Shown here: piece by piece, positions 16,501 through 34,700 of the stretch
Numbering within the stretch: the stretch's first letter is position 1
How the letters are laid out: each line of letters begins with the position of its first letter
Made by a program: the position numbers and the translations under genes
Virus record (IMG/VR): IMGVR_UViG_3300042860_003408
Coordinates: 21,866-85,865 of that record
From: a virus
Length of the DNA: 64,000 nucleotides
Reading direction: 5' to 3' (one strand)
The notes under the pieces: generated by a model
Seen by the model: the letters and a program-made list of their open reading frames with translations, nothing else
The model's database searches: none
What the model was told of the DNA's origin: nothing

Positions 16501-19500
16501 ACTATCAAGAAAGTTGCAAAGAAAAAGACAGATGCCAAAGAAGCCGCTTTAGAGCCTGTTTCTGACACGCAAAAAGCAGATGTAGTAGAAACATCAACTA
16601 ACACTCAAAAGTCGCTAGAATCGCCTGAAAATGGCCTTAAAAGCGATGCTAGCGAGCAAGTTTCTGGTAAGAAGAAATTTAAGAAGAGGACTAGTGGCGA
16701 TGTAGATAAAATATCTGACTTAGGTGTAAATGCTGTTGGTCCTACAAGACTGTCAACTAGTCATGCAGAGGAAGATAATTTAACTAATAGCGAACAAGCT
16801 TGGGCTAGAAAAAGGATATCATCTCTTATTGAAATCAGTGATACTGAAATTGAAATGGAGAACGGTGATATTGCTATGGGTGTAGCTAACATCTTAAAGA
16901 ATATTATTACACTATTCTCTGGCGCAGAAAGAGGCACTGCTTACCACGAAGCATTTCACATTGTGTCTCTTGGGTTAATACCAAGAAATAGAAGGATGAT
17001 GATATATGACTCAGTTAGGCGTACTATACCATCATTGAGTGATGCTACAAATAAGGATATAGAGGAATACTTAGCCGAGGAATTTAGAGTATGGAGAGAG
17101 ACTAATAAGATCGGCATTAAGATACCGATGCTTAGATCTGTATTCAGAAAATTCTCCAACCTATTTACTGGAATGAAGTCTGCAAACAAGTCTGATATAA
17201 ATAGATTATTTGAGGATATCGAATACGGTATATTTAAAAACAAAAAAGGTCCAAAGGCTAAATCTGAGCAATCTAAATTCTTTACTAGATTCTATGTAGA
17301 TGGAGCTGCTAGAACTTTGAAGTCAAAAGGATTCAATGCTATCAATACATTGGATATGCAATACGAAGTAGCCAAGGGGTTAGCATTCTCATTCATAGAA
17401 TTATCTGGAGTTGAAAAAGTTTCTGATATCCGCAATATGAGTAAAGACGTACTATATGATAGTATTCTTGCAGAGTATGAATATATGGAAGAAAATGGAA
17501 TGGAAGATACATTGAAATATAAAATATATGAAGATATATTGGATAAATTTGATGAGGAAATAGTTCCATTAATAAATAAAGAATTATCTTCATTTGGGAT
17601 AGCCCCAGCTGTATTCGATGTAGATGGAAACGAAATAGAGGATAACGATAAAGATATCGTAAGTAACGAGATAGCTAAACATACAGTAGAATCATATAAG
17701 GTTCCTAAGTCTGATAATATTCCAATGGAGGTTAAATTCTTCTTATGGACTATCCCTCAAAAAGAGAAAAATGCAGACGGTGTTGTTGTAGATAAATTTA
17801 ACCCATTAACTGGCTTTAAATTATTCTACGACCAGACCACGTCGTGGGTTACAGTTGCAAGCGATTTAGGTCATTTGAAATCGTACACCGAGATGAGGAA
17901 TAAAATATATTCTCTTGGTGTTGTATCTGGTAATTTATTCTATAGAAGCGTATTAGATAAGCTTGACAATTCTAGCGATAGATTTAAAACAGCATTCTTT
18001 GCCGCAGTAAAATGTCATAGACATGACTTTGCGAGTATAGCATTTACTGGAGACAAAAATGGAAACATGGCTGAAGCCGACAGAAGACTTAGGGTTATAG
18101 AGTCAAAGGCTACAACTGCCAAGATAACTAAGCCAAAAGAATGGGGTGAGAACATGATGTCTATTGGATTTTTATTCTCTGATAGTGTTGATGGGCCAGT
18201 ATTTAACAAGGCTAATGCCGAGTCTATAATAGCCAGACATAAAGCACTTGTATCATTTGCCGGTAGATTAACAAATCCACTAGAAGCTGAAAAGATTACT
18301 GACGAGCAAATTACTGCTGCTATTAATGAGTATATTGATATATTTAATAAAATAGGCATATCTATAAACGATGCAACTATAGATGAGATAATCAAACATT
18401 CTTATCCAAATGCATCTAGAAAAAACGCTATAGCTAGTTTAATCACCCAATCAAAACCAGAACACCCATCATTTGTTCTTACCAACATCATAACAGACCT
18501 AGTTAAGAATGATGGAAAGCTTATAGTAAACAGGAAAGAGAAGGTAGATAGAAAAGAGATCTACAAGTCTCAGAAGTCGACAGGATTTATAGCTATGATG
18601 TATTTCAAGGCCAATCCAAATATAACAGAGACCACTTCTACCGGGGCTGATGGAGCCAAGGTATATGAGATATCTCTACCAAACTATGTGACAGAGACGG
18701 CAGAAAGAATATCTACTGACACTGAATACAGGGATAAAGTAATGCAATCTAGTTTTGCTTCAGGCAGGATTGGAGGAGCAGCTTTCGAAGGAGACAGAAC
18801 TACTGTTGGAGGCTCTATAGTACTAGACCAATTACAATCAGGTGAATCAAAGGGATTAAAGGTTAAGACATTCTTGAAATTCTATGAAGATAATTCTGGA
18901 GATAAAGGTAGAGATTACTTTGCACTATCTCCTATGGAGGATTATATGATGAAAATGGCAGCCACTAATTCTGGATATATGTTATGTCCTACTATGGCTG
19001 ATAAGAAATCGTGGTACATGTTTGCTGGCATTAAAATGCCGTCATTTAGCGTATCTAAACAAGAAGGAACTCCTATTGCTGTTGATATGAATTCATTGAA
19101 AGATGGGCTAGTTAGACAATCAATCACATTCCCTACAAAAACAGTAGCTATATTCAATGGATACTTTGAGGCAGAATATCTTGCAATGCAGGATGCTTGG
19201 AGTGCATGGAAGGTTGCAATGGGTAATAAAAATAAACTAGAACAAACATATCACTACGGCGGATTCTCACAAAGAGGTGCAAATAAATATACCACAAAAG
19301 GCAAATGGAATTCAGGACTTGGTAATGGTATGAAATTTAGGCATTTCGATGAAATTTCTATTGACATAAAAGGCGACGGCTCATTTGTAAATCTAAATGA
19401 ATATCAAGAGGAATTGATAGACCAATATGGAGTAATTAATGGGATGACTAGATTCTTTGAGGAAATGGATAGTAAAATATTCAATGCATCAAATGAAACT

Positions 19501-22500
19501 AAATTCCAAATAATGAATGCCACCTTGGCTAATTCAATATCTAGAGAATTAAAGTGGCTTGTTAAGAATGGCGCTATAACTGTACAGCACAAAAAGAATG
19601 GCGTATTCTATAAAAATAAGAAGCTAGATAAATCTATATTTAAAGATACTAGAGCTTACTTCATCAAACAATCTAATTTAAACTCAAAAGAATCTCTTGT
19701 TAGTGACTATGCCGACACGTCTGCTATTTACAATATGGTTGCTGAGCATATGGTGAACACATCCATATCTACAATAGAATTTGAAAAGATATTCTCAAAA
19801 GACCCTGCATTCCATAAAGATCCTGATGCTAAGATAAAAAGGTTATCTTCTATACTATCAACAGGTACTCCATGTTTATCTGAAACAGGAAGATCCACAT
19901 TTGTGTCTGCTGAGTTAAATGACAATGAAATACCTTCTCCTAATTTATCTGAGATAAAATCAAGGATGATTGCTGCTCATGTAAACGAAAGACATGGCGA
20001 TGAATTAAATATGACTTTTAATGAAATATTAGAGGCTATTAATTCTGGAAATATGGACGAGATAAATAAGTTATCAGACATCAAAATGATAATGAATATA
20101 GTTGATGCTCAGACTGCTGGATATAATAAAGTAAATGAAACAGACGCTTCTGTGTTCATATCTCCTGTTATGTATAGAGATATACTTAGAAAATTAGGAA
20201 GATGGAATGAAGACTTAAATGAGGCATTTGATTTATTGGAATCAGAAGATATGTCTTGGATGGAAGATTCTGCTAAATATCTAAAAGTGATGGAGCTTGC
20301 TCTTAATCCGCTTAAGATGATATATTATGGAGATAAGTTCAGTAATGGGTTAAATATTCCAAAACTAGACAAGATGGCAATGTTCTGTTTATTTAGATCT
20401 GTCGCTACAGGTGCAAATAAAGCTCTATATGAAAGGATGAACAATCCAGAAGATGGTGCAAGCAAAATAGATATGGTCGCATTCTCATCTGCTGTTAAGT
20501 CTGGGAATAATAATCCAATAGACTTCTTTGACAAAGACGGTAATGTATCTAACCTTGATAAGTTTACAGAAGAAATTCAGCACTTTGAATTCCTTAGACA
20601 TCAGCTTGAAACTGAAGCTCACGAGGAAGAGGAGGTTGGATTGGCAACTCAGGTTCAAAAAGTTGCAATGTCCAATATAGTGTCAGATAAAGTTTATTCA
20701 AATATAACAATAGGCGGAAATAAAGGTGCTACAGGAAGACAGTTAATAGAGGAATGGTCAAATGCATTAACAGAGATATCTAATAGGGGTAGAAATGATG
20801 TAGAGAATGAATTAGGAATTAAATACGAAGGCGGAGTATTGACTTTCGATAAAAAGAAATTATACGGATTCTTGCATTCAGAGGCAATCAAGTCTAATAT
20901 GACTGATGATGTCTACGAGACCCTTATGAAGGCAGCTGAGCCAAATAGCAGGATAACACTTCAGGCCATGGCTGATAGAGATTGGATTGAGAGCAAACTT
21001 GTTTCATTTATTATGAAGAAGACTCTTGATGTCAATACCCCAGGTGGTGCATTTATTCAGATGTCTACATTTGGTATAAATACACTTACAGACAGCATAA
21101 CTAGCGAAGGATATAAGCTTAATGGTGGAAGAAAGTTAAATTACATGAATGCTGACGGAAGCATGGATTGTGTCGTTTCTCTATCATTATTTAAAGATGT
21201 TTTGCCAGAGGATGTTAAGTTGATGTCTCCAGTTAAGCAAAGAGATTGGCTTTTAATGCATAATATAATCGGTCCTGACTCAGATCCTGCTGCATTAGGA
21301 TATCGTATTCCAACTCAAGGTATGTCATCTGTATCATCATTAAAGATTATAGATGTTATCCCTAAGATAATTGGAGATACTATAATTCTTCCAACAGAAT
21401 TCACTGCGCTCACAGGCTCTGACTTTGACGTTGACAAGTTGTATTTAGCTAGATATAACTATGCTAAAAACCCAGCTGGTCGATTCGAAAAGGTTGAGTT
21501 TGATGACAACAAGAAAAGTGAGAAGAATCCAGAGAAGTCTAAATGGCAAGTAAATTCAAATGCTGCTATCCAAAATAGATTGTTGGATGTAATGATGGCT
21601 GCAATAACAGAGCCATCTTCTATACATGAAACAAGGCTTCCATTAGATGCTACTACTAGTGTAATAAAGGACGATATTCTTCCAGACATAGACTCAGTTA
21701 CTGGCACTGGAGAAAAGCGAGGAGCTCTTATGTTTACATCACCTTCATATCAAACAGATAAGAAAGTTGAGTATTCTACAGGCAAGAAGAATTTGGGTAT
21801 AATGGCACTTGCTAATACAAACCATATTTATACGCAGATGACTAATCTGACTATAAATCCAAAACAAAGGACAGCCGCTAAACACGGAATATTTGAACTT
21901 GGAGGAATATATGGAGCTGACGGAATGCGTATATTGGACTGGCTATCTGCCATGATTAATGCTCACGTTGACGTTGCCAAAGATCCATATATCATACGAC
22001 TAGGTGTTAATGAACATACTGTTAATATGGTTGCATTCTTACTTAGAGCTGGTATTGGCGGAAACGCATTCTACTTCTTATCACAACCATCTTTAAAAGA
22101 GGCTTATGCTGAGGTTGAAGAATTTAATGGCAAATATGAAGTAAATAAAGATTCTGTTAAGAAGTTGCATGAAGTAATAAAGGACAAGCTACAGAAATAT
22201 AGAGCTATGGCTGCTAGAATTGATGGTGGTAAAAACGCTCAATACGTAGAATCTTTATTCGTTGAAGATAAATATGGTAGACGTGATATGCCGACAGGAG
22301 ATGTACTTAATAGTAGATCTAAATTAAAGTCTGGCCTAAATAAAGACTTGTCTAATTTTGATTATCTATTGCACCAGATATTGGTAATGGAAACTTATTT
22401 AGAATTACTTCCATATTCTAACGAATTATCTGAGCTTGTCAAATACTCTCAAATTGAGACCAAAAAACAAGGTAAATCATTTATAGCAAATAATGAGTTT

Positions 22501-25500
22501 ATTTCAAAAGTAAATTCATTGATATTGGATGATGATAATGGAACGTCTGTATTTAGTGGCGTAAGAAACTATTATGAATCTACACCATTGATGGCAAGGC
22601 TTAGAAATAGCTCTGGGTTAATAGTAGGAATAAGTCGTGGTTTATTATTTAGAACCTCTAGACAAGTATTATCTATTCTTAACAAAGTAAATATACTTGC
22701 AGGAAGAGAAGGTTTTGACAATAGCAAATTCATGCATGGCGTATCAAGGTATGTCGAGACGGCAATTAAGGATTCTTTTTATAGAAAATATGCAGAACAA
22801 AACGATATAGATATAAATAGCTTGTTCTTTGGAGAAGACACTGTCGCTAAGGAATTATTCCATATCAAGTCTGCTATAAATAACGGTCATTTACCTGGAT
22901 ATGAAAACAATGTCTTCTTGAAGGTATTGTCATATACTATGCATAGTAAATCAGAGGAGTCTTATCCAGACCATGTTACTATAGACTCATCTGCGAAGGA
23001 CGATAAAAATATTCAAGAGAAGATAAAGTACTATTTTTCTGAATTATTAAATCCAATACTTGAAGATGAATCGCAAGAAGGCCTTAGTGAACAAGAAATA
23101 AGCGCACTTAAATCTAGAAATAAAGATAGGGTTATGCTTAAGGATTTTGCTAAGAGATTCATACTATATCAATTTTATAGCACTGGTGACAATAGCGCAT
23201 TAAATTACGTTAAATTATCTGAGGATGATAGAATTTCACTGGAGATTAATTCAGGGTTAGTAGATGCTAATACTGGAGCACCAATCAAGATTGCACTATA
23301 CGACTTTATAGATGATGTGTTGACGGAACTGAATGAATTATCATATGAACATACTCCTGGAGTAGCGCTTCAAAATGATGTTAAATTCTTGGAAGATTTG
23401 TTCATTAGTAGATGGTGGGATAATGAACTAGTTCCAACTACCACTGCATATAAAGTAAGAAAAGGTCAATTTGATGAAGATGGGCATCCATTAGTAGATC
23501 AGAAACCTAAGAAAATGTCGACTAAAAAGATGCTTGGTATTGAATATGAATTGGAATTTATAGACACTGCTGCTAGACCTATTGGATCTACATCTGATGG
23601 AAAACATCCAGTATTTAAGCCATTCGTTAAGATAATCAAGACAGGCACCAATGGAAGACAGTTTGAAATACTATATAAATACATAGGAAACTCGACAAGG
23701 TCTAATGCTAAAGGCGATGTGTCTATTAAACCAGTATATGTTGCTGTTGACAAAAAAGGTAGCAAAGCATCTGGTCTTGCACTTATAGAGTCTAATTCAA
23801 AGACTTCTGTAATAAAGACAAACGAACTTCCACAGTCAAATATAAATTCATCTATATTCTCGAAAGAGGCTGGATTTGATAAAGTAAGCTGGTTTGATAT
23901 GTTTATGGGTCTTGAAGATAAGTTCGTTGAGAGCTTAGGTGCTAGCACAGTAGATAAAGCAGTGACTAATGCAATAGATAACAATAGTTATTCTATGTCT
24001 TATTTAGATAATGCTATAGAAGATGCTGGAATTACAGATAGCGCAAGGATAGCCTCAATGAGGGAGGAATTCGCTAGAGGCATTTTAAGCCGTTTTAACG
24101 AACTCAATTTACCGGATAATACAATTGCCCAGGAAGATAGAGAAAGTGCCTTAGAAGAGCTTAAAACAAGCGCAGAGGCCTATCTAGGACAATTTATTAG
24201 GAAAGTAGAAATGCAACCTAGCAATAATGCTAGAAGCATTAACATATACGCTGGTACTGGAGAAAATGCAAACTTAAGTAATCTCGCAATAAGACCATTT
24301 ACTTTGCCAACAGGATCCTCTAGGCTGAATATGATTAAGGGAGATATCAGCTTTACTAGCGTAGAGCAAGCGTTCCAATTAGCCAAATACACGTATACTG
24401 GAAATGTAAGAGATGATGGTAGCTGGCAGCCGCAAATGCTGTCTGGTGGAGGCTTTGGGAATGAGATGTCAAAAGAGGATGATGAGTTCAATTGGAAACT
24501 GGCTGGACAAATACAGAACAGTAAAAACCCTGCTGAGGCCAAAGCCCTGGGAAGACAATTTAAACATTTGGACGTAGATAGATGGAATAAAGCCTCTTCT
24601 TCTATCATGAAAGAGTTATTGCTAGAATCATTTAAACAAAACCCTGATGCACTTCAAGAATTATTAGCAACTGGGAACGCAATACTTACTCATACGCAAG
24701 ATAAAGGCAAGTGGAGTACTGAATTTCCTCGACTTCTTATGGAGGTTAGAGATGAATTAAACGCAGATCTTACTACAGAAGCAGAAGGCGAACAGGATTT
24801 AACTAATATTAACGAATCTAGCACGCTTACTGGATATCAAGGAAGAAAGTCTGATGTAGCAGACAATAGAGAATATAATTTCTATTCCACATCAGAAGAG
24901 GAGGCCAGGGATTATGGAAGTAATGTTTCTAAAAAACGAATAAGCCTAAATAACTTCTTATTTAAAACAGAATTACTACCCAATGGGACGTCTGTCTATA
25001 CAGAGGCCTATGATAAGATATATAAAGCATTTCAGGAAAAATATGGATCTCCATTTGATATATTGAATAATGGAACACCAGAAAAAATAGAGCTTATGAA
25101 TAAGTTCTTTGAAATGGTAAGAGAGGCTGGATTTAGTGGATATACAGAGATAAGAAAGAATAATAATTTTAGTCAATCAGATAATAGGTATATTGTTACG
25201 TTTAATCAAAAGTCTACTGCTAAATCAATTTCGATTGCATCTGAATTCACTAATCATTCTGGTGGCGCTTATGGTGCTGACACCTTCTGGGATCAAATTG
25301 GTAGAGAATATGGTGTAACTGATAATAGGCATTACAGACAAGAAGATAATAAGTCTTTATCTCAAGCGCTTAGAAATAAGAAAGTTGAAGCCACTGTTCT
25401 TACAACGGAACAGATGGATAAAGCTAGAACTGAGATAGAGAAATTGCTAGGCAAGAAATACCCGGATACAAAAGAAGGCAACCTGCAAGTAAGAAATTAT

Positions 25501-28500
25501 TATCAAGTGTCTAATGCAGATGCTGTATTTGCAATAGCAAAAATATCTGGAGATGCCAAATTTAATTCTGGAACTGTGTTCGGCGGAACAAACACTGCAG
25601 TTCAATTAGGAGTTCAATTAGGAAAGCCAGTATATGTATGGGATGTAACCTCTGAGCAATGGATGCGGTTTGTTCCGGAAATGCGAAAAGATGATAAGAT
25701 TGTAGGAAAGTTTGTCCCAACAAGCACTCCTATGCTCACAAAGAACTTCGCTGGCGTTGGTACTAGAGATATTGAAAACTATAATACTTTAAATAAGACT
25801 ACTAATCAGTGGGAGCCAAGAAAAGAGTATTTAGGAATAGAGAAAGAAAATGCCGCAAAACAGGCTATTAGAGATGTGTTTGAAAATACATTTAAAAATC
25901 AAGAAAACACTACAGCTAGTGAAGAAGAGCATGAGTCTACTATAAAATCTATAGAGGGAAAACAAGAATCGTTAAGTAAGCAAGACCAGGAAACTGTTAA
26001 TGAAGTATTTAATGATGGAGGAAAACCTAAGATACTTATAGCCAGCGAGACGTCAGACCCAGTATTCCATGTTAAGAAAATAAAAGAAATTGTAGCCAAC
26101 AGAAAGACTAATGGGGTAAATGCAATGTATCTTATAACAAAACATGACGGACTCCCATTGAAAGAATTGGCTGAATTAAAAATTCCTAAATTCTATCACT
26201 TCAGCATAACTACTCTTGGCGGCACTAAGTATGAGCCAGGCGTTATGAAATACGACGACTTATTAGATAGGATTGAGACATTTATAAAAGAAGGCCTTTT
26301 AAATCCAAATCTAATAACAGTTAGGATTGACCCTATCATTCCAGGAGTTACTAATTTTGATGACGTAGAGCGTGTAATAAAGAGAGCGTCAGAAATGGGA
26401 ATTAGGCAGATTAAGTTCAGTGTAATGGATAGCTATTCAGGATCTAAAAACGATAGATTTATAGTAGCTAAAATGAAGGAACTTGGCTACGATTTTGCAG
26501 CATATAAAACAAATGACAATATTAAATTTAGCGCTAAACAGGAGATAATAGATGAATTAAGTGTTAAAATGCGCGATCTTTGTAAGAAATATGGAATACG
26601 ACAATTAAGTTCTTGTGCTGAAAAAGTAAACGTAGACGGAGTTCAAAAATTAGGTTGTTTAAATGTTCAATCTATAAACGCTGCGATGGGAAGGACTGAT
26701 GTTACTCATGTCCAAGGAAATCAAAGACAAGATTGTAGTTGCTACGGGAATAAGGTGGATGCATTAAGATATAATGATAAATGCGCAAGTAGCTGTGTAT
26801 ATTGCTATGCAGGACATAACAGTGTTGTTTCGCTTAAGTATTATAATGAGGATGGTAGTCTAAAGGTAAATGATTTTACGAAGACATCAAATACTGAACA
26901 AGCAATTATCGAGCCGGAAGTGACACAAGAAAGATTCACTGAATTTGGGACTACGTATGCTTTTGGATTTGTTGACGGAAAAATGACTTCGGCAATGTAT
27001 CAGCAAGGAAATGGCGAATTTAATAATATGAATATGTTATCTGCAGAGAAGGCATATTCTAGATTGAAATCAAAAAGTGAAAATGCTGTCGTTAGTGAAG
27101 TAACGCCTGATACTCCATCAGAAGCTGATATAAATCTATTTGGAAAAGATATTGACTTAAGTAAGATTGGTATTCCTTATCAATTAAACGATGAGCAAGA
27201 AGCTGCATTGAAAGCAATAGAAGCATGGGTTAAAGATAAAACAATAACTACCCCATTCTCGCTATTAGGCTCTGCTGGTTCTGGTAAAACATCCATAACT
27301 AGAGTACTTATAAATGCACTTAGCAATGCTGAGATTACATATCAATTATTAGCTCCAACACATAGAGCTAAAGGTGTATTATCTAGAGCTACTGGCAAGA
27401 AAGCTAAAACATATCATGCTTACTTTCAATTAGTCCCAGAGGCCAGAGAGGTTGGTATGAAGCTTGAGTTTGGCGGAGCTACTAATTATGAATCTAATGT
27501 AGATCTATATATAATAGATGAGGTTTCTTTAATCTCAGATAAGAGTGTAGATGAAATACTTAAAGTTGCGGAAGCTACTGGAGCTAAAGTATTGTTTATT
27601 GGAGATCATGCTCAGTTATATCCTGTTGGAAATACTGACGCAAAAGGAATGCCTAAACAATCAATTGGGTTAGAATCTCCAACCAGCATAGTTCTTAATA
27701 AGGTTATGCGTGTTGCGAATGGAAATCCATTAGCAGATGTATTAAGTATTATGAGAATGTATCAGGCTCCTGGGCTTATGAATATCAATGGAACTGAATA
27801 TAATTTTACCGACCAGTCTAAAGCAATCTTCTCTAAGAGAGATGCATTTAACGACCAAGGCGGCGTTGTATTTGTAGGCGAAGCTGATAGAGCGAAAGCA
27901 GTAGAGCAATTTGTTGATATGTTCTTTACGTCAGAAGACTATTCTAAGGATGTTAATTTCGCTAAGATATTGGCATTTAGAAATGATGTAATAGACTCAA
28001 TGAATGCCTATGTTAGAGCTAAATTAGGAAAGAAAGGATTGATTGAGGTTGGAGAACAAGTCATAGGATATAGTCAAATAAAGGCTGGAAAGGTAGACTT
28101 GGTTGCGAACGACGATGAATATGTTGTTGACAGCATAGGAGCTCCTAGAGAGATTACGTCATACGCAGTGCCTGGAGTAACATTGAAAGTTGTTCCAATA
28201 GAAATACGAATGACTACTGGTGCTTCCGCTGGAGGCGTATTTAATTTATTAACTGATTATAGCGAAGAGAATATGCTTGCAATACGAGCGGCTATTCTTA
28301 AGCGGAAACAGGAGATAAGTAATATGGACTATCAAGAAAAAAGAGAGGCTAATAGAAACTTCTTTATTGCATTGACTAAAGATTTCATTACGCTTAAACC
28401 TATAAAAAATAGCTTAACTGATAACGAAAATGCGTCAAATAATTTAAAGGATAGAACTATTGGATTTACATACGCATCTACAGTACACAAAGCTCAAGGC

Positions 28501-28752
28501 GGAGAATATCAAAACGTTCTTGTTCTTGATTCGGACCTCAGAGGAATAGATAAAAACTTTGATGGATTAATTTACAGGAAAGCATTGTATACGGCTGTAT
28601 CTAGAGCTCGTAGAACTGCTACTGTAATTACTAATACTAAAAAATTAAACTCAGAGAAAAAACAAGTTTCAGCTGATGGAACTAAAATACCTGAGTCGTT
28701 TAAACCAAATAATAGTCTGATTGGAAATGAAAGACCGTCAGATAAATGTTAA
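10540..28752 (+). CDS. Giant virion-packaged RNA polymerase polyprotein with accessory domains
   Basis: 6070 aa. YRIPTQG (21301-21321) and GSDFDVDKLY (DFDVD at 21421-21435) are the crAss vRNAP double-psi beta-barrel catalytic motifs. Also HEAFH zincin (16945-16959), NADAR, SLOG-like, DUF1848-like and SF1B helicase motifs toward the C-terminus. Confidence 0.9.
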   Translation: MTREDIKRALQGEDTRFGEYVRSRSSVYGQGRSELDELKRRNEYEEAKRKRPSKDEPKRKAARDESKDAEDGQKKLPLENETKKGNDYNFFADSYRTFVGGKNQTEIDNALGELKYNLPVFKYSSDMLSSKEVQSDEDLYKAARFAREMQSNAKAQALFQKNEELSAEQARLKSLYESGDKSVSAAFINNEPWNPESKGKTIYSLTGAVQQGEGPSFLEKADMMMGASHGYAEWEQMKGMVSGLFRTVGTSLVAAAVAPVISVMGKVSLGNAVGNILGGLTLKTAADVAIDKPVDLISNLSDATRFSMGYVPAVAGGLIGAGVNKFMPSGDVRQGYIDIDDSLVPEDTKYAYSKYKDLIKNWSKVGGDFDGTIPSIDDVLDGKESLHSYTGEKVGKFDSVLAKKTKDAQESIKTDLNDLRMWGAPSEYATKKVEENDWYWGKMLNTSGMSMSEFEGQVGLIALNSAISLATKKPTIGTKLLSSLALTGANAAFAVRSRDSEFFSQFSQAFNEKQDAILGENAISKMSYEELLSHISEPKETMDKVMSQFGKYDKSQERHKRETLEMLIRTGIVKSDIPGINEAAVAASDGSDELARQYRSMIYSDMGQNGLMLASLMPIKGGIPKAMQGLAKSTSDYYKNLSLSSFIRNNRAGRVLGKTAQLASEVGWEAFVDEPLFEEIPQTMMDMKFKEGSLKENAGIFGSYLDKNKTISTGAKALFGLSGDERYDKNAELLDTYWSTVMSVAFMGAGRNVISSPAHIKELNRSFNADKLFDSVIEPGIKTSAFKAKASAYIGAVKNGQFDFVIENLKELQKNPPEGYTAEDITNEIKLAKRIASIADSKFVREYAKKSGGYGSEDHLLLTSLISDHENAAREGYLESRTANEAEANLLANFDETTFSKLVTSINTTREDADKISTGAAIGIAMLRNKLAAIATISVNDPLESKASKIKSNLITRAASDDLGSVSSNLIDALLNAKLITEEQGAELLKIENSKDLSDAIDEFVPIELNDDIKDMAYGLVSSYGAQYEEHMASILRGDQTLYNREKDTKVDRFHDVDELLDMHRKSLESNEKEQRVLEAAETKREEKKREAKTKPETTVVAEPVVEPIVVELESLEPKWEIPSAPEIVEYESLESAPEVETEQVPPLDETDIPPLTEADLNSSVNRAEELLADDNFDPFSDYDKEEEAAKQAADNQEEQAPTQGITNNGTIYPVLDLSKIDTDNFIYVTHQTDIVGLEQILSRGFDIRNGLNGTSLFGNTESIQSQMDSINSGHGHRGASRMIVFAFPKSKFGNVRQLDEISDMLIDEGIFSIPGQYVFGVFTENNKPITQEAAPQKSKQDELKEKLNARLAHLADVATDVLGSKMNATGKQYSSKDFLPAMTGVLEVIMELGYTSFVDVVSNASDAMKGNAVLAGLIDRISPKQWRAAYNSAADFAEGTQSEEEVIAYSNDDVKAIVAGTYKKEEEIDINEDLEDLNQPEKTEEEENKEASKEISEIVKGAAAISIAMEKEDSSDFVNIDDEAPGTIDEDKVSVRFGRLPHTLFTSNPEIIKWLKTPKALEGATFEIEISTIPFDKVPQSRKDAGDYIPFDINNPNSWNEAAIFVKIKDKNGVVRPLNISFHNIAVNSMFEDSDGNMYPKFNEQDIADLVDFRNKIIALYAESLANGSNKELVVSGVSIGRAKIKLNRKNGKPVQRSLSKIKGLIEGFNGDFSTINNNTLSLAYGRGWRGNFTVVGIDGVIGDTDEQNSGSMFAVKIDPVLGTKRKIKLNKRRFSEDKDTAEFIYKLLIDWNMSKGELALDRDGNVVLAGDGASNRLGISAEGLLSKIVNFGKRTQINKKDLPMLTHLLPKQFYVEGNSLYLGEAKFDISNPAGISPEIKAQIIDYIKNNFNWSINAHDLWNQTGANRKVADVFSGITDYFRSNPEAKSIKFFEGMEIKREDLGLTWEAWIVKYDKLISDVADDIFESPYTFLNDVELADRMDKPTIKKVAKKKTDAKEAALEPVSDTQKADVVETSTNTQKSLESPENGLKSDASEQVSGKKKFKKRTSGDVDKISDLGVNAVGPTRLSTSHAEEDNLTNSEQAWARKRISSLIEISDTEIEMENGDIAMGVANILKNIITLFSGAERGTAYHEAFHIVSLGLIPRNRRMMIYDSVRRTIPSLSDATNKDIEEYLAEEFRVWRETNKIGIKIPMLRSVFRKFSNLFTGMKSANKSDINRLFEDIEYGIFKNKKGPKAKSEQSKFFTRFYVDGAARTLKSKGFNAINTLDMQYEVAKGLAFSFIELSGVEKVSDIRNMSKDVLYDSILAEYEYMEENGMEDTLKYKIYEDILDKFDEEIVPLINKELSSFGIAPAVFDVDGNEIEDNDKDIVSNEIAKHTVESYKVPKSDNIPMEVKFFLWTIPQKEKNADGVVVDKFNPLTGFKLFYDQTTSWVTVASDLGHLKSYTEMRNKIYSLGVVSGNLFYRSVLDKLDNSSDRFKTAFFAAVKCHRHDFASIAFTGDKNGNMAEADRRLRVIESKATTAKITKPKEWGENMMSIGFLFSDSVDGPVFNKANAESIIARHKALVSFAGRLTNPLEAEKITDEQITAAINEYIDIFNKIGISINDATIDEIIKHSYPNASRKNAIASLITQSKPEHPSFVLTNIITDLVKNDGKLIVNRKEKVDRKEIYKSQKSTGFIAMMYFKANPNITETTSTGADGAKVYEISLPNYVTETAERISTDTEYRDKVMQSSFASGRIGGAAFEGDRTTVGGSIVLDQLQSGESKGLKVKTFLKFYEDNSGDKGRDYFALSPMEDYMMKMAATNSGYMLCPTMADKKSWYMFAGIKMPSFSVSKQEGTPIAVDMNSLKDGLVRQSITFPTKTVAIFNGYFEAEYLAMQDAWSAWKVAMGNKNKLEQTYHYGGFSQRGANKYTTKGKWNSGLGNGMKFRHFDEISIDIKGDGSFVNLNEYQEELIDQYGVINGMTRFFEEMDSKIFNASNETKFQIMNATLANSISRELKWLVKNGAITVQHKKNGVFYKNKKLDKSIFKDTRAYFIKQSNLNSKESLVSDYADTSAIYNMVAEHMVNTSISTIEFEKIFSKDPAFHKDPDAKIKRLSSILSTGTPCLSETGRSTFVSAELNDNEIPSPNLSEIKSRMIAAHVNERHGDELNMTFNEILEAINSGNMDEINKLSDIKMIMNIVDAQTAGYNKVNETDASVFISPVMYRDILRKLGRWNEDLNEAFDLLESEDMSWMEDSAKYLKVMELALNPLKMIYYGDKFSNGLNIPKLDKMAMFCLFRSVATGANKALYERMNNPEDGASKIDMVAFSSAVKSGNNNPIDFFDKDGNVSNLDKFTEEIQHFEFLRHQLETEAHEEEEVGLATQVQKVAMSNIVSDKVYSNITIGGNKGATGRQLIEEWSNALTEISNRGRNDVENELGIKYEGGVLTFDKKKLYGFLHSEAIKSNMTDDVYETLMKAAEPNSRITLQAMADRDWIESKLVSFIMKKTLDVNTPGGAFIQMSTFGINTLTDSITSEGYKLNGGRKLNYMNADGSMDCVVSLSLFKDVLPEDVKLMSPVKQRDWLLMHNIIGPDSDPAALGYRIPTQGMSSVSSLKIIDVIPKIIGDTIILPTEFTALTGSDFDVDKLYLARYNYAKNPAGRFEKVEFDDNKKSEKNPEKSKWQVNSNAAIQNRLLDVMMAAITEPSSIHETRLPLDATTSVIKDDILPDIDSVTGTGEKRGALMFTSPSYQTDKKVEYSTGKKNLGIMALANTNHIYTQMTNLTINPKQRTAAKHGIFELGGIYGADGMRILDWLSAMINAHVDVAKDPYIIRLGVNEHTVNMVAFLLRAGIGGNAFYFLSQPSLKEAYAEVEEFNGKYEVNKDSVKKLHEVIKDKLQKYRAMAARIDGGKNAQYVESLFVEDKYGRRDMPTGDVLNSRSKLKSGLNKDLSNFDYLLHQILVMETYLELLPYSNELSELVKYSQIETKKQGKSFIANNEFISKVNSLILDDDNGTSVFSGVRNYYESTPLMARLRNSSGLIVGISRGLLFRTSRQVLSILNKVNILAGREGFDNSKFMHGVSRYVETAIKDSFYRKYAEQNDIDINSLFFGEDTVAKELFHIKSAINNGHLPGYENNVFLKVLSYTMHSKSEESYPDHVTIDSSAKDDKNIQEKIKYYFSELLNPILEDESQEGLSEQEISALKSRNKDRVMLKDFAKRFILYQFYSTGDNSALNYVKLSEDDRISLEINSGLVDANTGAPIKIALYDFIDDVLTELNELSYEHTPGVALQNDVKFLEDLFISRWWDNELVPTTTAYKVRKGQFDEDGHPLVDQKPKKMSTKKMLGIEYELEFIDTAARPIGSTSDGKHPVFKPFVKIIKTGTNGRQFEILYKYIGNSTRSNAKGDVSIKPVYVAVDKKGSKASGLALIESNSKTSVIKTNELPQSNINSSIFSKEAGFDKVSWFDMFMGLEDKFVESLGASTVDKAVTNAIDNNSYSMSYLDNAIEDAGITDSARIASMREEFARGILSRFNELNLPDNTIAQEDRESALEELKTSAEAYLGQFIRKVEMQPSNNARSINIYAGTGENANLSNLAIRPFTLPTGSSRLNMIKGDISFTSVEQAFQLAKYTYTGNVRDDGSWQPQMLSGGGFGNEMSKEDDEFNWKLAGQIQNSKNPAEAKALGRQFKHLDVDRWNKASSSIMKELLLESFKQNPDALQELLATGNAILTHTQDKGKWSTEFPRLLMEVRDELNADLTTEAEGEQDLTNINESSTLTGYQGRKSDVADNREYNFYSTSEEEARDYGSNVSKKRISLNNFLFKTELLPNGTSVYTEAYDKIYKAFQEKYGSPFDILNNGTPEKIELMNKFFEMVREAGFSGYTEIRKNNNFSQSDNRYIVTFNQKSTAKSISIASEFTNHSGGAYGADTFWDQIGREYGVTDNRHYRQEDNKSLSQALRNKKVEATVLTTEQMDKARTEIEKLLGKKYPDTKEGNLQVRNYYQVSNADAVFAIAKISGDAKFNSGTVFGGTNTAVQLGVQLGKPVYVWDVTSEQWMRFVPEMRKDDKIVGKFVPTSTPMLTKNFAGVGTRDIENYNTLNKTTNQWEPRKEYLGIEKENAAKQAIRDVFENTFKNQENTTASEEEHESTIKSIEGKQESLSKQDQETVNEVFNDGGKPKILIASETSDPVFHVKKIKEIVANRKTNGVNAMYLITKHDGLPLKELAELKIPKFYHFSITTLGGTKYEPGVMKYDDLLDRIETFIKEGLLNPNLITVRIDPIIPGVTNFDDVERVIKRASEMGIRQIKFSVMDSYSGSKNDRFIVAKMKELGYDFAAYKTNDNIKFSAKQEIIDELSVKMRDLCKKYGIRQLSSCAEKVNVDGVQKLGCLNVQSINAAMGRTDVTHVQGNQRQDCSCYGNKVDALRYNDKCASSCVYCYAGHNSVVSLKYYNEDGSLKVNDFTKTSNTEQAIIEPEVTQERFTEFGTTYAFGFVDGKMTSAMYQQGNGEFNNMNMLSAEKAYSRLKSKSENAVVSEVTPDTPSEADINLFGKDIDLSKIGIPYQLNDEQEAALKAIEAWVKDKTITTPFSLLGSAGSGKTSITRVLINALSNAEITYQLLAPTHRAKGVLSRATGKKAKTYHAYFQLVPEAREVGMKLEFGGATNYESNVDLYIIDEVSLISDKSVDEILKVAEATGAKVLFIGDHAQLYPVGNTDAKGMPKQSIGLESPTSIVLNKVMRVANGNPLADVLSIMRMYQAPGLMNINGTEYNFTDQSKAIFSKRDAFNDQGGVVFVGEADRAKAVEQFVDMFFTSEDYSKDVNFAKILAFRNDVIDSMNAYVRAKLGKKGLIEVGEQVIGYSQIKAGKVDLVANDDEYVVDSIGAPREITSYAVPGVTLKVVPIEIRMTTGASAGGVFNLLTDYSEENMLAIRAAILKRKQEISNMDYQEKREANRNFFIALTKDFITLKPIKNSLTDNENASNNLKDRTIGFTYASTVHKAQGGEYQNVLVLDSDLRGIDKNFDGLIYRKALYTAVSRARRTATVITNTKKLNSEKKQVSADGTKIPESFKPNNSLIGNERPSDKC
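16541..16645 (+). repeat. Dispersed phased element E2
   Basis: AAGCCGCTTTAGAGCCTGTTTCTGAC ... AAAAGTCGCTAGAATCGCCTGAAAATGGCCTTAAAA. Confidence 0.55.
24073..24180 (+). repeat. Dispersed phased element E3
   Basis: AGAGGCATTTTAAGCCGTTTTAACG ... GAAAGTG (24142-24148) CCTTAGAAGAGCTTAAAA. Confidence 0.6.
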
Positions 28753-28772: not shown

Positions 28773-31700
28773 ATGTGCCCAAATATTAATGATAAAAAAA
28801 TAAGGAATGATTTTAATAAGATCGTTCAAGCGTTCGGTGGTCGACCAATGACTATTGATGAGTTTAAATACAAAGAATTGCGTGATGAGCGTAGCGGGGT
28901 CGATGACTTCGCTATGCAACATGCATACGCAGTTTGGGATAAAACAAATGGAGAGCCAAATTTAGACACTCCGGATATACTTAACTATTCTAAATTTGTA
29001 CTTAGTGGAGATAAGAAGTATAAGGCTGAATACGAGAAGAATGTAAATAATGGAGCTGGAATATTGCCTATATCTACAAATAGGGATTTATATAAAGAAC
29101 TAAATCTATTAAATGATGATGGAAATATCTTAACCTTCCCATACTCAAAGTTTCCTGACAATGAAAAAGGCGAGGCTAAATTCATAGAGGAGGTGTTTAA
29201 TAAAAAGTCGTCTAGAAATGACATCCAAGGTAAATACTCCTTATCGTTTAAAAAGTCCCCTAATAGTAAAGGTAGAGTTATATGGATAACTAAGCTGGAT
29301 GAGCCAAAAGAGCTGCAAGGCGAGATTGATTTTGATACTCCTGTATATAGCACACAAGAGAGATTGTCCGACTTATCTGAGGCTGATGAGATTATAGTTT
29401 CAAATTCGATTAAACAGACAGATGTTGTTCTATTTGGACATCCAACTATAGGAAAAAGTTTCCTTAAAAACAATGGAGCCGATAGTTTTATTTCTCTAGA
29501 TGACGACTATGCAGAAGAGATAAATAGAGAGGTTAGCGCCATTGCGATAAAATATAAAGTAGCCGAACATTTAGTGAAAGATGGCGGAAATATGCAATGG
29601 AACGTCGAGTATAACGATATGATGCAGAGGCTGTTTGATGCTGCCAAAAAAGAGGCCGCCTTATCTGGTAAAATGCTGTTCACGTCAAACACTAATTTAC
29701 TTAGAAACAATTCGTCTTCATTTGATAGAGTAATAAACTTAACTGATAAAGAATTCAAAGACAGGGCTAATGCTAGAGGAGTTAAGTATGATATTAATGA
29801 ATGGAAGGCTCAAATAAATGAAGTGGTAAGTAAATTTCCAAAAGAAAAAGTTATTACTACTGATAAATATCTATCCGACCTTCTTCCGAAAAAATCAACA
29901 GGAAATGACAGCGGAATAAATACTGTATTCGAGCAAAATCCAGAATTATCTAAAATTGGAACAAAGGAACAGTACTCACGGTATTTAGAAACGATATTTC
30001 CAGACAGCAAAGTAAAAGACATTGTATACCACGGAGGATCTCCTGCCGCAGATTTTAACAATCCTGAGTTTGGAACTAGTGGGTTCCATGGATTTTTTGC
30101 CACAATCAAAAGTGTTGCAGATGAATTCGCAAACAGATGGACTAGAAATAAGGGTACTACAGGAAAAACAAAGGCTATACTTGTTAACATACAAAATCCA
30201 GATATTACTGATAAATTGTACCAAGGAGAGTATAAAGAGTCTGTTGAATATATAAAAGCAAAGATAAATGAAGGCTCTAATGATGGAATTATAGCGACAA
30301 ATACAAATGATAAGTTCTCAGATAAGCTTGGGAGTTATGACCAATACGTCGTATTCGATAAGGAGCAGATTCATATTTTAGGCTCTAAGCAGGATATAGA
30401 AGGATTTAAGGCATTTGTAAAAACGACCGATTCTAAGGCGATTTCAGCCACTCAAAATAACGAGGATAGGCTAACCTCCATGTCTGCCGAGAAAGTGGCT
30501 CAGAACGTCTCTAAACGCCAAATAAAGGCCATTGTAAGAATAGCCGATGACCTTAGTAGAAGGTTTGGTGTAAAGTTCAATGTTATGAATAGAAATACAT
30601 CTATGTTTTATGGAGTTTCTAAGTCAATGAATACAGGAGCATATTATAAAGCTGGAGGCGCTGTATTTTTCTACGATACAATAAAGCCTAGTTATATTAT
30701 TCATGAAATGTTTGGTCACCCAATGATGTTTGCATTAAGAGCAAGCTCAGATCCAAAACATAGAGAGATATATGACGCGTTACTTGCGGAGGCAATGAAA
30801 AATACAGAGATAGTTAATGCTGTCAACAATTCATATATTGACGACGCTAAGACCATAAAAACATATGACGATGAAGTTGTAGGAGATGAAATAATTATTA
30901 GGTCTATAGAAAAAGAATATAACAATAGAGAGAATAGGAAGATAGCATACTTATGGTCTAGAGCTTTAAGAGCTCTGACAGAGACTATTAAAAGAATATT
31001 TGGAAACAACTCCATACCAACAGATATAAATCCATATATATCAATAGGAGATATGCTGGATTATGTATTGTACGGAAAGAATGCTGTTGATATATTATCT
31101 CTAGAGGATAAGGACTTAATGGCAAAGTCAGTCGACTCGATTACAAATGAAATAAAGGGAATAAATGGAGCTAACATAGCTATAGCTGAATTTCTTAATC
31201 TGTTTAAAAGCGATACTTCTAAGCAAAGAGCAATAGAGCATGGAATAAATGAATATTCAATTGAGAAAGAAAATGATTGTGCATATATTTTAGCATCATT
31301 CTCTCATCAGTTATACAAAATGTCTATTTCTAGAGATATAATAGTAGAAGATGGAAAAACAGGAAATCGCTTTGAGTTTAAAAAAGTTGATGATATATAT
31401 CAATTCCCAACTGACGATACTTTATATGGGTTAAAAAACTCTCACGTAATAGCATTTCTGAGGGCCGCTAGTAGGCTTGGAGATGGCGCCATTACAATTA
31501 AGTCAGATAGAACTGAGTTTATTGGCGTTATTATGAGATTTACTCCATCTATGCTTGTGTCTAAAATAGATGAAAATACAGTAGTCTTGTTTCCAGTAGA
31601 CAGAATGGCTGATATAGGCCCAGACTCATTTAATGTCTCATATAGAATGCTTGACTCAGAGATGGTTACATCGGATGAATTAAGTAAGTCTACAGCAATG

Positions 31701-34700
31701 GCTACAATGAATAGGGTTCTTTCTGGATTGAAATCTAAGCTGCATACAGCAGAGAGAAGTAAGAACGTTACTCAGTCCTATCTAGACTCATTGAAATTGC
31801 TAATAAAGGACGTTGAAAAACACGAGGCGATGGTTGGCATGATTAAATTTATAGAATTCTCTGCAAATGAAATCAAAGACGTAAGAGTCAAGCTTGATAA
31901 GATGGTAGTCCTTAAGAACACAGGCAAATGGCTTGATGATGAGCAGTTATTCGATATATCTAAGAACTTCCTATCTATGTATGACTCAGCAACAGCTGCT
32001 ATTAGTACAATTATAAACGACTCTCCGTCTATAGCCAAGGGCTTCCCAAAAGAAGATATAGATAGTCTTATTGCCACCGTAAGAAAGATTAGGTCTGAGA
32101 TTGATGATATCAAGTCAATGCTTATCGGGCTAAATGAATATCAATATGTCAATACTATAAAGAGAGAGGGGTTAAATTATAGATCCACTACAGTTAAAGG
32201 TATAACCAAGAAATCTTCAGACACTTCAGAGCAGACTGTATTTAGCGAGAGCGACGACATAGGTCAATTAACAATGCTTGTAGGTGCGATGGTGATGTCT
32301 CCTAAGGAGCAGCATAGAATACTATTTGCCAAGGTTGAGGAGGCTAAGATGAACGCTAGACGCACAATGGAGACTGATGGTGTGATTCTTGGTTTAAAAG
32401 AAAAATGGGACGCTGTTAGAGCTAAGAGAAAGTACGCTACATTCTCTAGATATATGGAGAAAAATGACAATGGCAAAACAACTGGATATCTTCTGTCTGA
32501 CTTAAAGTATGGTTCGTTCTACAAGAACTACGATATCTTTATGAATGACCTTAATTTCAGATACGGATTAACTGGTCATGGAGCAATTCCTATTGATGAA
32601 AAAGAAGCCGCTGAATTCCAAAAAGAAAAGAATGCTTGGATGGAGGCTAACGTTGAGCGCATATTCACTCCTGAGTATTATAAGCTAAGAGAGAATATAA
32701 GTCCTTCAACACAAGAGCTTATGACAGAATATGATGACATACTTAGATCTTTTTATTCTAAATTCAGAGATGAGAATGGAATAATAAGGACTGAAAGAAT
32801 GACCCTTGAAGATAAGGAAAGCTTGTTCGACATAAAGAAGAGAAAAGAAGCCTTATCTATGCTTACATACGCTGATGGTACCCCTAAGACTGTAGGTTCA
32901 TACGATTATAATGTAGCGATAGAACTTCAAGAATTCTACAAAGCTACCACTGATGGTATAAAATACAAATTCAATGTAGATGCATTTGAACGAGCCAAGG
33001 AAAACGCAAGAAAGACTTTGACTGCAGCTGAGTTCAAGGAATGGATGAAAGAGAATACTACCGTAAGACTTAAAGATGAGTTTTACGAGATGATTTCTTC
33101 ATCTGCCAATGAAATGCAATCTGAGAAATGGAAAGAACTCTACCAAATAAGAAAAGACCTACTTAAGTATAATAGAGATATGAATACTATGGAGGTTATA
33201 GGTACAAGGGTTGAGGCTAATAAGCACATAGCTGAGCTAATAAAAAGAATAGATAAAAAACTATCAGACACTCGAGTTAAGACAACATCTACTGCTAGAT
33301 TTAAATTTAAAGATATAGCGGAGGTTGTTCCTAATCAAGCCTATAATAGTGAAATAGAGAGATTATCAGCAGATAAATCATCGGCTGGCGTTAATGCTCT
33401 GAATGAATTTAAAAAGAATTCAGGGTATTATAATAAAAAAGGTAAATTTACTCTATATTCTCACTGGTCAAAAATAGTTCCAAAGAATAAGTCGTTTATA
33501 GAGATCTCTCCGAACTTCATATGGCAAGAGCTAGACGAAAGTTCTCCATTATATAATAAGGATTATGATAAGTCTAGAGAGAAATATGGTATGCAACCAA
33601 AACGCTCAATGTATGATAACTCTAAGGAATATAATAGATTAACTTCAAACAAAGAAGATAAGGAATTTTTAGAAGCGTATAGAAGTGCTATGCAAAAAGC
33701 AAATGAGAACTACTTCTATATGAATAGGTCTAATCCAAATAGATTGCCTCAAATATCTACATCATTCTTTGCAAAGGTTGTTAGAGGCAGCAATTGGATA
33801 TCTGGATTTATAAAAGCGTTGAAAGACTCTATGAATTATATGCCTGAGGATTTATTTATTGGGGATTCAGATTCGAGTGGTAAATATTATGCCGACGGCA
33901 CAGCTGTTAAGCATATACCAACTAGATATAGAACGATGCTTGAGGATACAAATATGATATCCAGGGATTTACTTGGCTCATTTGCTATGTATTACTCGTC
34001 ATCTCTTAATTTCGTTGAGATGTCTAAGGTTCGTGGAACCATAGAAACTATACTAGAAGGGCTTAGAAATGTTCAGATACATGATCCAAAAGGGAAAGAG
34101 GTTAAGACTGGCGGTAGAATGTACCAAAAAGCCGCAGAGTTTGTTAACTCAGAAGTTTATGGTGATGATAAAGTAAGCGCACTTGAATTCTCAATATCTA
34201 GAGGCAATATCGCTACGTCACTATATAATATGATTAGGCGAATGTTTAACAAAGAAAAAGTTACTTCTGGTAGAATCGGCTCCGTATCTGTAGACAAGTT
34301 TATAAAGGCAATAATATCTTATACTAGGATAGTCAATCTTGGATATAATATAAAATCTATATTCAGTAACTTTGGTGGTGCTAAGGTTCAGCAAAAAATA
34401 GAAGCATCAATGGGCTCATTCTTTACAGAAAAAGGACTTATGTTTGCTAATAAAGAAATAGCTCTACGTTTGCCTAGCATAGTAGCTTCATCCACTAATA
34501 GAAGCAATGATAAGATAACGTCTCTTATGAGATATTTTGGCATTACAAGAAGCAACGAGTCGGATATGAAAAACTTGCATGGATGGAAATTTGCAAGATA
34601 TGTAGAAGATAAATTCTGGTATGGCCCATACGAGGCTGGCGACTTTGCAATAAAGGCTCCGTCTATGATAGCTATACTAGACAACTTTAGGTTGTATGAA

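Follow-up and report, generated by a model that had tools for sequence, protein, structure and literature searches.

What does the virion RNA polymerase (vRNAP) of a crAss-like phage do with about 1500 additional residues behind its polymerase core? This question is raised by a 64,000-nucleotide stretch of viral DNA (the "window," positions 21,866 to 85,865 of IMG/VR record IMGVR_UViG_3300042860_003408), in which a single open reading frame (ORF) encodes a protein of 6070 residues. An original prediction from the letters of the window had placed five domains in frame downstream of the core, which were NADAR-like, ADP-ribosyltransferase (ART)-like, SLOG-like, DUF1848-like, and superfamily 1B (SF1B) helicase domains, and had understood them as an injected toolkit that acts before any phage gene is expressed. 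The answer favored here, with a probability of about 60%, is that the ORF encodes a polyvalent virion cargo protein, which carries enzymes for DNA care and counter-defense into the cell together with the genome.

A probable fused cargo giant with a crAss-type polymerase core

The 6070-residue ORF was uninterrupted under translation table 11 or the standard code. Its middle part matched PDB entry 6vr4_A, which is gp66 of phage phi14:2. By homology to gp66 and by its DFDxD metal-binding motif, here DFDVD, it belongs to the crAss-type vRNAPs, as predicted. The HEAFH sequence foreseen as a zincin-type motif was present upstream of the core, and HExxH was kept in all 37 of the 37 relatives whose BLAST alignment covered the site of the motif; the surrounding region matched no family in Pfam or PHROGs. 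The nearest annotated genomes were those of the RefSeq crassviruses cr272_1 and cr130_1 (Suoliviridae, Oafivirinae), which encode homologous giants of 6386 and 5801 residues, respectively, one of them annotated solely as a "DprA-like DNA recombination-mediator protein." We regard the ORF product as a fused cargo giant, which is encoded by a crAss-like phage with its closest annotated relatives in the Suoliviridae; it is composed of a gp65-like HExxH part, a gp66-like vRNAP, and an accessory tail (Table 1).

This layout resembles gp65-gp66-gp67 of phi14:2 and the crAss fusions into a "single huge polyprotein" (Drobysheva et al., 10.1101/2020.03.07.982082), as well as gp47, gp49, and gp50 of crAss001 (PMC10172136). 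The core with its DFDxD motif is homologous, an HExxH part is located upstream, and the place in the genome beside another giant ORF is the same. According to the text of the former report, some phages have the three neighboring virion proteins in fused form, with a zincin in one of them. Unlike phi14:2 and crAss001 as described in the text of both reports, where accessory enzymes are not named, the approximately 1500 residues following the polymerase form five extra domains here.

Table 1 Features of the giant ORF and its neighbor. Positions are those of the window; residues (aa) of the giant ORF were converted to bases by nt = 10540 + 3 x (aa - 1).
Feature	Position (nt)	Strand	Residues (aa)	Evidence or content
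Giant ORF	10540..28752	+	6070 in total, ~677 kDa calculated mass	N-terminal region, HExxH domain, vRNAP, accessory tail
HEAFH motif (HExxH, zincin-type)	16945..16959	+	2136-2140	Motif search
crAss-type vRNAP core, best-matching part	19588..21468	+	~3017-3643	PDB 6vr4_A, E 3.8e-40
Catalytic DFDVD motif of the vRNAP core	21421-21435	+	3628	Motif position
Accessory block, ~900 aa (NADAR, unnamed domain, SLOG, DUF1848)	24214..26930	+	4559 to ~5465	Missing in relative P0002
NADAR domain	24265..24702	+	4576-4721	Pfam PF08719, 48.1 bits vs. cut-off 35.1
Unnamed conserved domain	24817..25224	+	~4760-4895	44 clusters at E<=1e-3; alignment A1
SLOG/DprA-like domain	25240..25893	+	4901-5032 (PHROG match)	phrog_768 "DprA-like," E 9.6e-11
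DUF1848 domain	26035..26817	+	5179-5424 (Pfam match, nt 26074-26811)	Pfam PF08902, 65.4 bits vs. cut-off 30.5
SF1B (Dda/RecD2-like) helicase module with small N-terminal accessory region	26935..28641	+		Pfam, PHROG, and RecD2 matches
Helicase motifs	Walker A 27268-27291; Walker B 27511-27528; further conserved motifs 27601, 28483, 28591	+		Motif positions
Second giant ORF	28773..35804	+	2343 in total	No Pfam or PHROG match

Identity of the domains in the accessory tail

Of the five in-frame domains, NADAR, DUF1848, and the SF1B helicase were confirmed by Pfam, SLOG was supported by PHROGs only, and the label "ART-like" was not confirmed. The predicted coordinates agreed with the profile matches within a few dozen bases. 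Acidic linkers are located at about residues 4740-4760, 5118-5165, and 5430-5465.

The NADAR domain (predicted at 24238-24759) scored above the cut-off of its Pfam family and also matched phrog_1017, PDB entry 8bau as the best structure, albeit with a low identity (E 7.2e-5), and YbiA (2b3w). The sequence SVEQAFQLAK (residues 4607 to 4616) contains a Glu and a Lys seven positions apart, a spacing equal to that of the catalytic residues E88 and K95 reported for the Escherichia coli C7 NADAR, with the two pairs matched by this spacing and not by alignment. The Glu/Lys pattern is common to the giants of cr272_1 and cr130_1 and of the IMG/VR locus L004; an ILTHT sequence follows at residue 4715. 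As far as AdfN (PMC11825919) and the DarG1/NADAR hydrolases (PMC11543638) are described in the respective texts, the domain shares with them the NADAR fold family, the Glu and Lys 7 apart, and the occurrence in phages. Phage NADARs have a His at the position of a conserved Glu according to the text of the latter report, and the window's domain has a His at the place that is occupied by His in T4-type phage NADARs or beside it. Unlike AdfN, which is a small early product, the NADAR is here one domain of a 6070-residue cargo protein and, if injected, would act without prior expression.

The SLOG domain (predicted at 25252-25893) was assigned to a "DprA-like" PHROG family, but a Pfam search up to E<=10 and a PDB search with a three-sequence profile gave no relatives. 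An HSGGAYGAD loop is located at residue 4906 and an FGGTNTAV sequence at residue 5014. The glycine-rich parts HSGGA.G.D and GGT were invariant in alignment A2 of the domain, and we take them to be the nucleotide-binding loops of SLOG/DprA proteins. The homolog in cr272_1 matched the Pfam family DNA_processg_A weakly (E 0.0031).

The DUF1848 domain (predicted at about 26030-26820) was clearly recognized by Pfam. We know of no activity of this family. A weak match to the PA0069 radical-SAM family (NCBIfam, E 0.0025) was accompanied by a C-terminal CASSCVYC sequence of the CxxxCxxC type (residues 5415 to 5422, positions 26782-26805) and five more Cys residues in the domain; the cysteine cluster was kept in cr272_1 and L004. 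The domain probably binds an Fe-S cluster and is radical-SAM-like. A near full-length match (E 1.3e-22, model positions 3 to 240 of 242) to the PADLOC model RTasDUF1848 relates it to the DUF1848 proteins that are found beside UG25 defense reverse transcriptases according to the text of PMC9226505. Unlike these, the DUF1848 domain of the window is on the side of the phage and fused into a cargo protein.

The helicase (predicted at 27184-28620) was identified within residues 5545 to 6034 (27172-28641) by AAA_30 (87.8 bits, 1e-24) and UvrD_C_2 (43.7 bits, 2.4e-11), by phrog_325 "Dda-like helicase" (E 2.2e-57), and by RecD2 of NCBIfam (E 6.7e-29). It resembles T4 Dda and RecD2 (PDB 3upu, 3e1s) in the combination of AAA_30 and UvrD_C_2, and all helicase motifs sought were present and intact (GSAGSGKT, IIDEVS, GDHAQL, VHKAQGGE, and TAVSRAR). 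Its identity to free-standing crassvirus SF1 helicases was 25 to 31%. Unlike these and unlike Dda and RecD2, the helicase of the window is fused to the C terminus of a virion polymerase. Across the record of 85,865 bases, a linear metagenomic virus contig with an estimated completeness of 83%, AAA_30 (SF1B) was matched solely by the fused helicase (27181-27720).

The fifth piece, predicted as ART-like at 24826-25200, is a real conserved domain, but none of the tests described further below gave significant support for an ART; Pfam and PHROGs gave nothing significant for this piece. An exhaustive search with HMMER retrieved 44 representative clusters at a threshold of E<=1e-3, 15 of which reached E<=1e-10. 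YQG, R, EA, YG, FD.L, GY.G, and DN.Y.V.F are conserved in this unnamed domain, and YQG, R, EA, YG, FD.L, and two Gly residues were invariant in the 12-sequence alignment A1, across which the STS sequence of the window was not conserved. Among the carriers of the domain were 25 proteins of more than 1000 residues. Since 13 of these 25 contained a crAss-type core as judged by BLAST or a DFDxD motif, the unnamed domain is, on the basis of these sequences, a recurrent add-on of such polymerases. It adjoins SLOG in the window, in L004, and in the proteins P0163, P0122, and P0134 and immediately precedes a true ART-PolyVal domain in P0126, P0149, P0129, P0125, and P0138. In a protein of 643 residues (P0162), the N-terminal two thirds of this domain are present as four copies in tandem. 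A tblastn search of 50,697 GenBank phage records gave no match to it. In cr272_1 and cr130_1, the slot after NADAR is filled by DUF7831 (PF25176), where the window has the unnamed domain; a relationship between both domains was rejected (hhalign probability of 0.5%).

Exchange of modules between related giants

The original prediction had proposed to compare the domain content of related vRNAPs. A search for proteins of 3338 to 10623 residues that share parts of the tail yielded 134 giants, and 120 of them were examined by BLAST against the modules of the window. Of these giants, 113 contained SLOG, 30 NADAR, 26 DUF1848, and 22 the helicase, and none contained the unnamed domain. The unnamed domain was also absent, as judged by hidden Markov models (HMMs), from the best 120 of 151 mid-sized homologs, many of which may be fragments of giants recoded at TAG. 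The modules of the 120 giants occurred in 31 different orders, or 25 if the zincin flag was ignored, and none of these was the order of the window. In some giants, all modules were located N-terminal of the core. Additional Pfam modules were DUF7831, ART-PolyVal, an AlkB-type oxygenase, AAA_33, SLT lysozyme, peptidase M15, and homing-endonuclease domains. The order was NADAR-DUF7831-DUF1848-SLOG in cr272_1 and SLOG-NADAR-DUF7831 in cr130_1. Two IMG/VR loci, L003 and L004, matched the block with 53% identity in the best segment, and L004, the one that was dissected, had the order DUF1848-NADAR-unnamed domain-SLOG. A search of IMG/VR with the helicase part gave no close relatives. The tail modules behave as accessories that are exchangeable between related phages.

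Two observations were made beside this exchange. Cr126_1 (Steigviridae, NC_055884.1, L005 5842-12459) encodes a 2402-residue protein that is annotated as "DUF1768 domain-containing protein," is located directly after the replication genes, and carries near its N terminus a NADAR with 40.6% identity to that of the window; therefore, a second crassvirus family also has fusions of NADAR to giants. L004 (about 11040-11440) and cr272_1 have in common a conserved stretch of about 130 residues (EKEGWS.EY ... VGD..), which is absent from the window. It is positioned between or inside the accessory modules and, in cr272_1, within the last 1.8 kb of the giant ORF.

A near-identical relative without the block

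The nearest relative was P0002, a protein of 5209 residues from a contig of 95,099 nt. It was 86 to 97% identical to the 6070-residue protein over the shared segments and 71% in the linker before the helicase. After the sequence ...RKVEM, which ends at residue 4558 of the window's protein, a linker of 32 residues led in P0002 directly into the pre-helicase region (residue ~5466 of the window's protein). Exactly the block composed of NADAR, the unnamed domain, SLOG, and DUF1848 was missing, and the helicase was retained with 95% identity. SLOG was absent from P0002 and from the second giant of its phage as well.

The GC content of the block was 0.361 compared to 0.362 of the rest of the gene, the GC content of third codon positions (GC3) was 0.277 compared to 0.276, and the codon-usage distance of the block was equaled or exceeded by 11 of 52 windows. 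A foreign origin of the block was not supported by these values. Repeats flanking the cassette, proposed as "phased elements," were sought, and those found were short, of low identity, and chance-like, so that the idea of such elements was not supported. Because the composition of the block matched that of the gene and meaningful flanking repeats were missing, either gain or loss of the block may account for the difference in this pair.

The second giant ORF of the window behaved similarly. Its residues 212 to 548 (337 residues, 29406-30416) were missing from a 90% identical ortholog, P0167, the source contig of which had likewise 95,099 nt. The 337-residue stretch contains a P-loop-like sequence, GHPTIGKS, and a VYHGG...GFFAT sequence resembling the start of ART-PolyVal; it matched neither our own ART-PolyVal profile nor Pfam or PHROGs. 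Readings of this second giant as ART-PolyVal-like or zincin-like were rejected, with no support from Pfam or PHROGs. The phage of the window and that of P0002, which differ by blocks of about 900 and about 337 residues, form a near-isogenic pair and thus a natural experiment on the benefit of such cassettes.

Possible function of the tail

Several unrelated domains of the effector type, the virion and late-gene context, and the variable domain sets agree with what characterizes the polyvalent proteins of phages and conjugative elements. Described examples include N4-type vRNAPs fused to zincin metallopeptidase, ART, lysozyme, or PBECR domains (Iyer et al. 2017, PMC5512222). According to the main text of that report, such proteins are virion-associated giants that combine a polymerase and a zincin-type peptidase with unrelated enzyme domains in varying sets, as in the window, and they are proposed to be early-acting effectors delivered with the DNA, as here. 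The exchangeable tail modules fit this idea, on which the original prediction was built. The window's protein differs from the N4-type in its carrier, which is a two-barrel crAss-type polymerase and not a T7-like N4 polymerase. NADAR, SLOG, DUF1848, and crAss do not occur in the main text of PMC5512222, which was the part covered by this search.

A sequence of events can be proposed by analogy. As with the orthologs of phi14:2 and crAss001, the two phages for which the respective texts show virion packaging of vRNAP-associated giants (10.1101/2020.03.07.982082; PMC10172136), the giant would be packed into the capsid. In crAss001 virions, gp47, gp49, and gp50 were detected by mass spectrometry, and the cargo is thought to leave the virion partly unfolded, before or with the DNA, and to refold in the host, as stated in the text of PMC10172136. 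The giant of the window may likewise traverse the tail in a partly unfolded state and regain its fold in the host, so that its tail enzymes would be present with the DNA before expression of any phage gene. NADAR, as an ADP-ribosyl-glycohydrolase, might then strip ADP-ribose from guanine, where DarT1-type defenses had added it. The free-standing AdfN proteins, which are phage NADARs, clear phage DNA of ADP-ribose and overcome DarTG1 (PMC11825919, as far as described in its text). DUF1848 may repair or modify DNA; SLOG could be a nucleotide- or single-stranded DNA (ssDNA)-binding domain; and the incoming DNA would be opened or cleared by the helicase, possibly assisted by SLOG. The putative zincin may cut the chain into pieces.

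Several points weigh against this reading of the tail as injected cargo. Injection, cleavage, and the enzyme activities are what we infer for the phage of the window and its relatives in the Suoliviridae. The gene is located in a late-type structural and cargo block, so the protein should also be found in cells at a late stage of infection and could act in them. No function is assigned to one of the five domains, and the identity of another, SLOG, is given by one PHROG family and two invariant glycine-rich loops. At the third catalytic position, the NADAR has Thr-His instead of the Glu-His of YbiA, and because neither Glu nor Asp is present, its substrate is uncertain. The 120 giants were chosen by similarity to the tail, which biases the module frequencies, that of SLOG most. 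Many relatives read TAG as Gln, so that "proteins" from the databases may be fragments.

A tentative alternative, which overlaps in part with the cargo reading, is that the helicase, perhaps together with a SLOG that binds ssDNA, supplies the polymerase with a single-stranded template and does not serve in counter-defense. In vitro, gp66 of phi14:2 was efficient on single-stranded or denatured DNA, with poor or absent transcription of double-stranded DNA, and QDE-1, which is related to the crAss-type polymerase, requires RPA and the helicase QDE-3 (both from the text of 10.1101/2020.03.07.982082). A role as template supplier would agree with the high conservation of the helicase in P0002, from which the other four modules were lost or had always been absent, with the fused helicase as the sole AAA_30 match of the 85.9-kb record, and with the conservation of SLOG, which in 104 giants was far higher than that of the core (median identity to the window of 50% compared to 30%). 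Against such a role, just 22 of the 120 giants contained a homologous helicase in the same protein. In other crassviruses, for example cr118_1, cr50_1, cr3_1, and cr11_1, a free-standing SF1 helicase is annotated as a gene of its own, and SF1 counts among the conserved crAss genes; a second helicase could be missing from the incomplete record. Moreover, SLOG was found in neither giant of the P0002 phage.

A combination of both ideas is doubtful but can be formulated: the tail would consist of two kits. In the first one, the helicase and, in giants that have it, an ssDNA-binding SLOG would be the phage counterpart of QDE-3 and RPA for QDE-1 and supply the template, which would explain how a polymerase preferring ssDNA in vitro starts on an injected duplex. 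In the second one, NADAR, the unnamed domain, and DUF1848 would form a pre-loaded "eraser" set that removes host defense marks from the entering genome before phage genes are read. In this case, the unnamed domain would represent a novel module derived from an ART, possibly with altered catalysis, that guides NADAR or SLOG to ADP-ribosylated nucleic acid.

Action of the tail in the producing cell, or its removal before packaging so that it would never be injected, is quite improbable. The tail would then serve late DNA repair or removal of marks and replication ahead of packaging, and the fusion would only ensure co-expression. The cargo genes are indeed late genes (text of PMC10136315), other crassviruses encode the SF1 helicase in a free-standing gene of its own and not as part of a cargo giant, and the conserved HExxH domain could process the chain. 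However, trimming of a tail would not remove the same types of modules where they are located N-terminally or in the middle of related giants. Polyvalent proteins of such a layout are described as delivered effectors in the main text of PMC5512222, which also states that the N4 vRNAP is packaged unprocessed.

Quite unlikely, too, is a writer/eraser pair, in which the domain after NADAR would be an active ART marking host targets and NADAR would protect the phage DNA. As catalytic motifs of ARTs, H-Y-E or R-S-E are used. In alignment A1, the invariant YQG was found where YHG is expected for an ART, so that the expected His was an invariant Gln, and the residue under the catalytic Glu varied (A, P, N, Q, or R). 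The best Pfam match of the domain alone, in a search at E<=10, was a weak one to DRAT (E 0.079). When a global alignment was forced with hhalign, YQG was aligned with the YHG strand and NY.T..EA..YG with the matching stretch of ART-PolyVal, but the probability of a relationship was 6 to 7% in local and global mode. A profile of the unnamed domain from iterative HMMs missed the true ART-PolyVal domains, even adjoining ones; PF18760 (ART-PolyVal) had no match at E<=10 in the six frames of the whole record; and a PDB profile search gave no significant support for an ART. Pfam scans covered 12 members and 8 carriers of the domain; 3 of the 12 members matched ART-PolyVal, but in a neighboring domain. 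Neighbors of the unnamed domain in a language model were clusters with ART-PolyVal in 22 to 92% of their members (scores of 0.92 and 0.88), which may, however, be clusters that contain the unnamed domain followed by the start of ART-PolyVal, as in P0138. The adjacency of NADAR and the unnamed domain was kept in L004. The domain was not classified as an ART, with no significant support from Pfam, PHROGs, the PDB profile, our own HMMs, hhalign, PF18760, or two Atlas look-ups. Because the label "ART-like" was not borne out, the writer/eraser interpretation is left without support.

A chimeric assembly or a chance open frame can practically be dismissed, even for a linear metagenomic contig of incomplete length, because the frame is open over 18.2 kb at about 36% GC, the GC and GC3 contents of the block are those of the rest of the gene, and homologous giants from independent contigs contain these modules in frame as well.

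Relation to published work and significance

The strategy of polyvalent virion proteins was known already, and so was the size of crAss polymerase genes, which are described as "up to ~6000 aa" in the text of PMC10136315. Published text on NADAR, SLOG, DUF1848, or helicase tails of crAss-type polymerases was not found, with figures and supplements outside the scope of this search. Figure 3 of Yutin 2021 (PMC7886860) depicts "recognized conserved domains" of the crAss gene block, according to the text, and may include some of these domains. Specific to the window are the carrier in the standard code, the order of the five modules, and the clean indel compared to a near-identical relative, in addition to the recognition of the "ART-like" module as a different, unnamed domain.

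If the tail is injected, counter-defense and DNA-care enzymes would arrive as proteins together with the genome and would then beat defenses that set in ahead of phage gene expression, for example DNA ADP-ribosylation of the DarT type. This would be a mode of counter-defense so far not shown for NADAR. DUF1848 and the unnamed domain gain a biological setting, and the fused helicase points to a testable answer to the question of how crAss-type polymerases obtain a single-stranded template. Because crAss-like phages dominate the human gut virome, the biology of the first minute of their infection is of wide interest.

Neighboring genes and genetic code

The giant ORF adjoins the second giant ORF and a divergent replication block. 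It is the middle one of three co-directed ORFs in one block (8583-10523, 646 residues; 10540-28752; and 28773-35804). Downstream of this block, small genes in divergent orientation follow, and the strand skew changes at about 36 kb.

The giant ORFs of the window (10540-35804) are open under the standard code, and those of cr272_1, cr130_1, and L004 are open only with TAG as an amino acid codon. In the two of these three giants that were counted, 37 TAG codons are read through in cr272_1 and 51 in L004.

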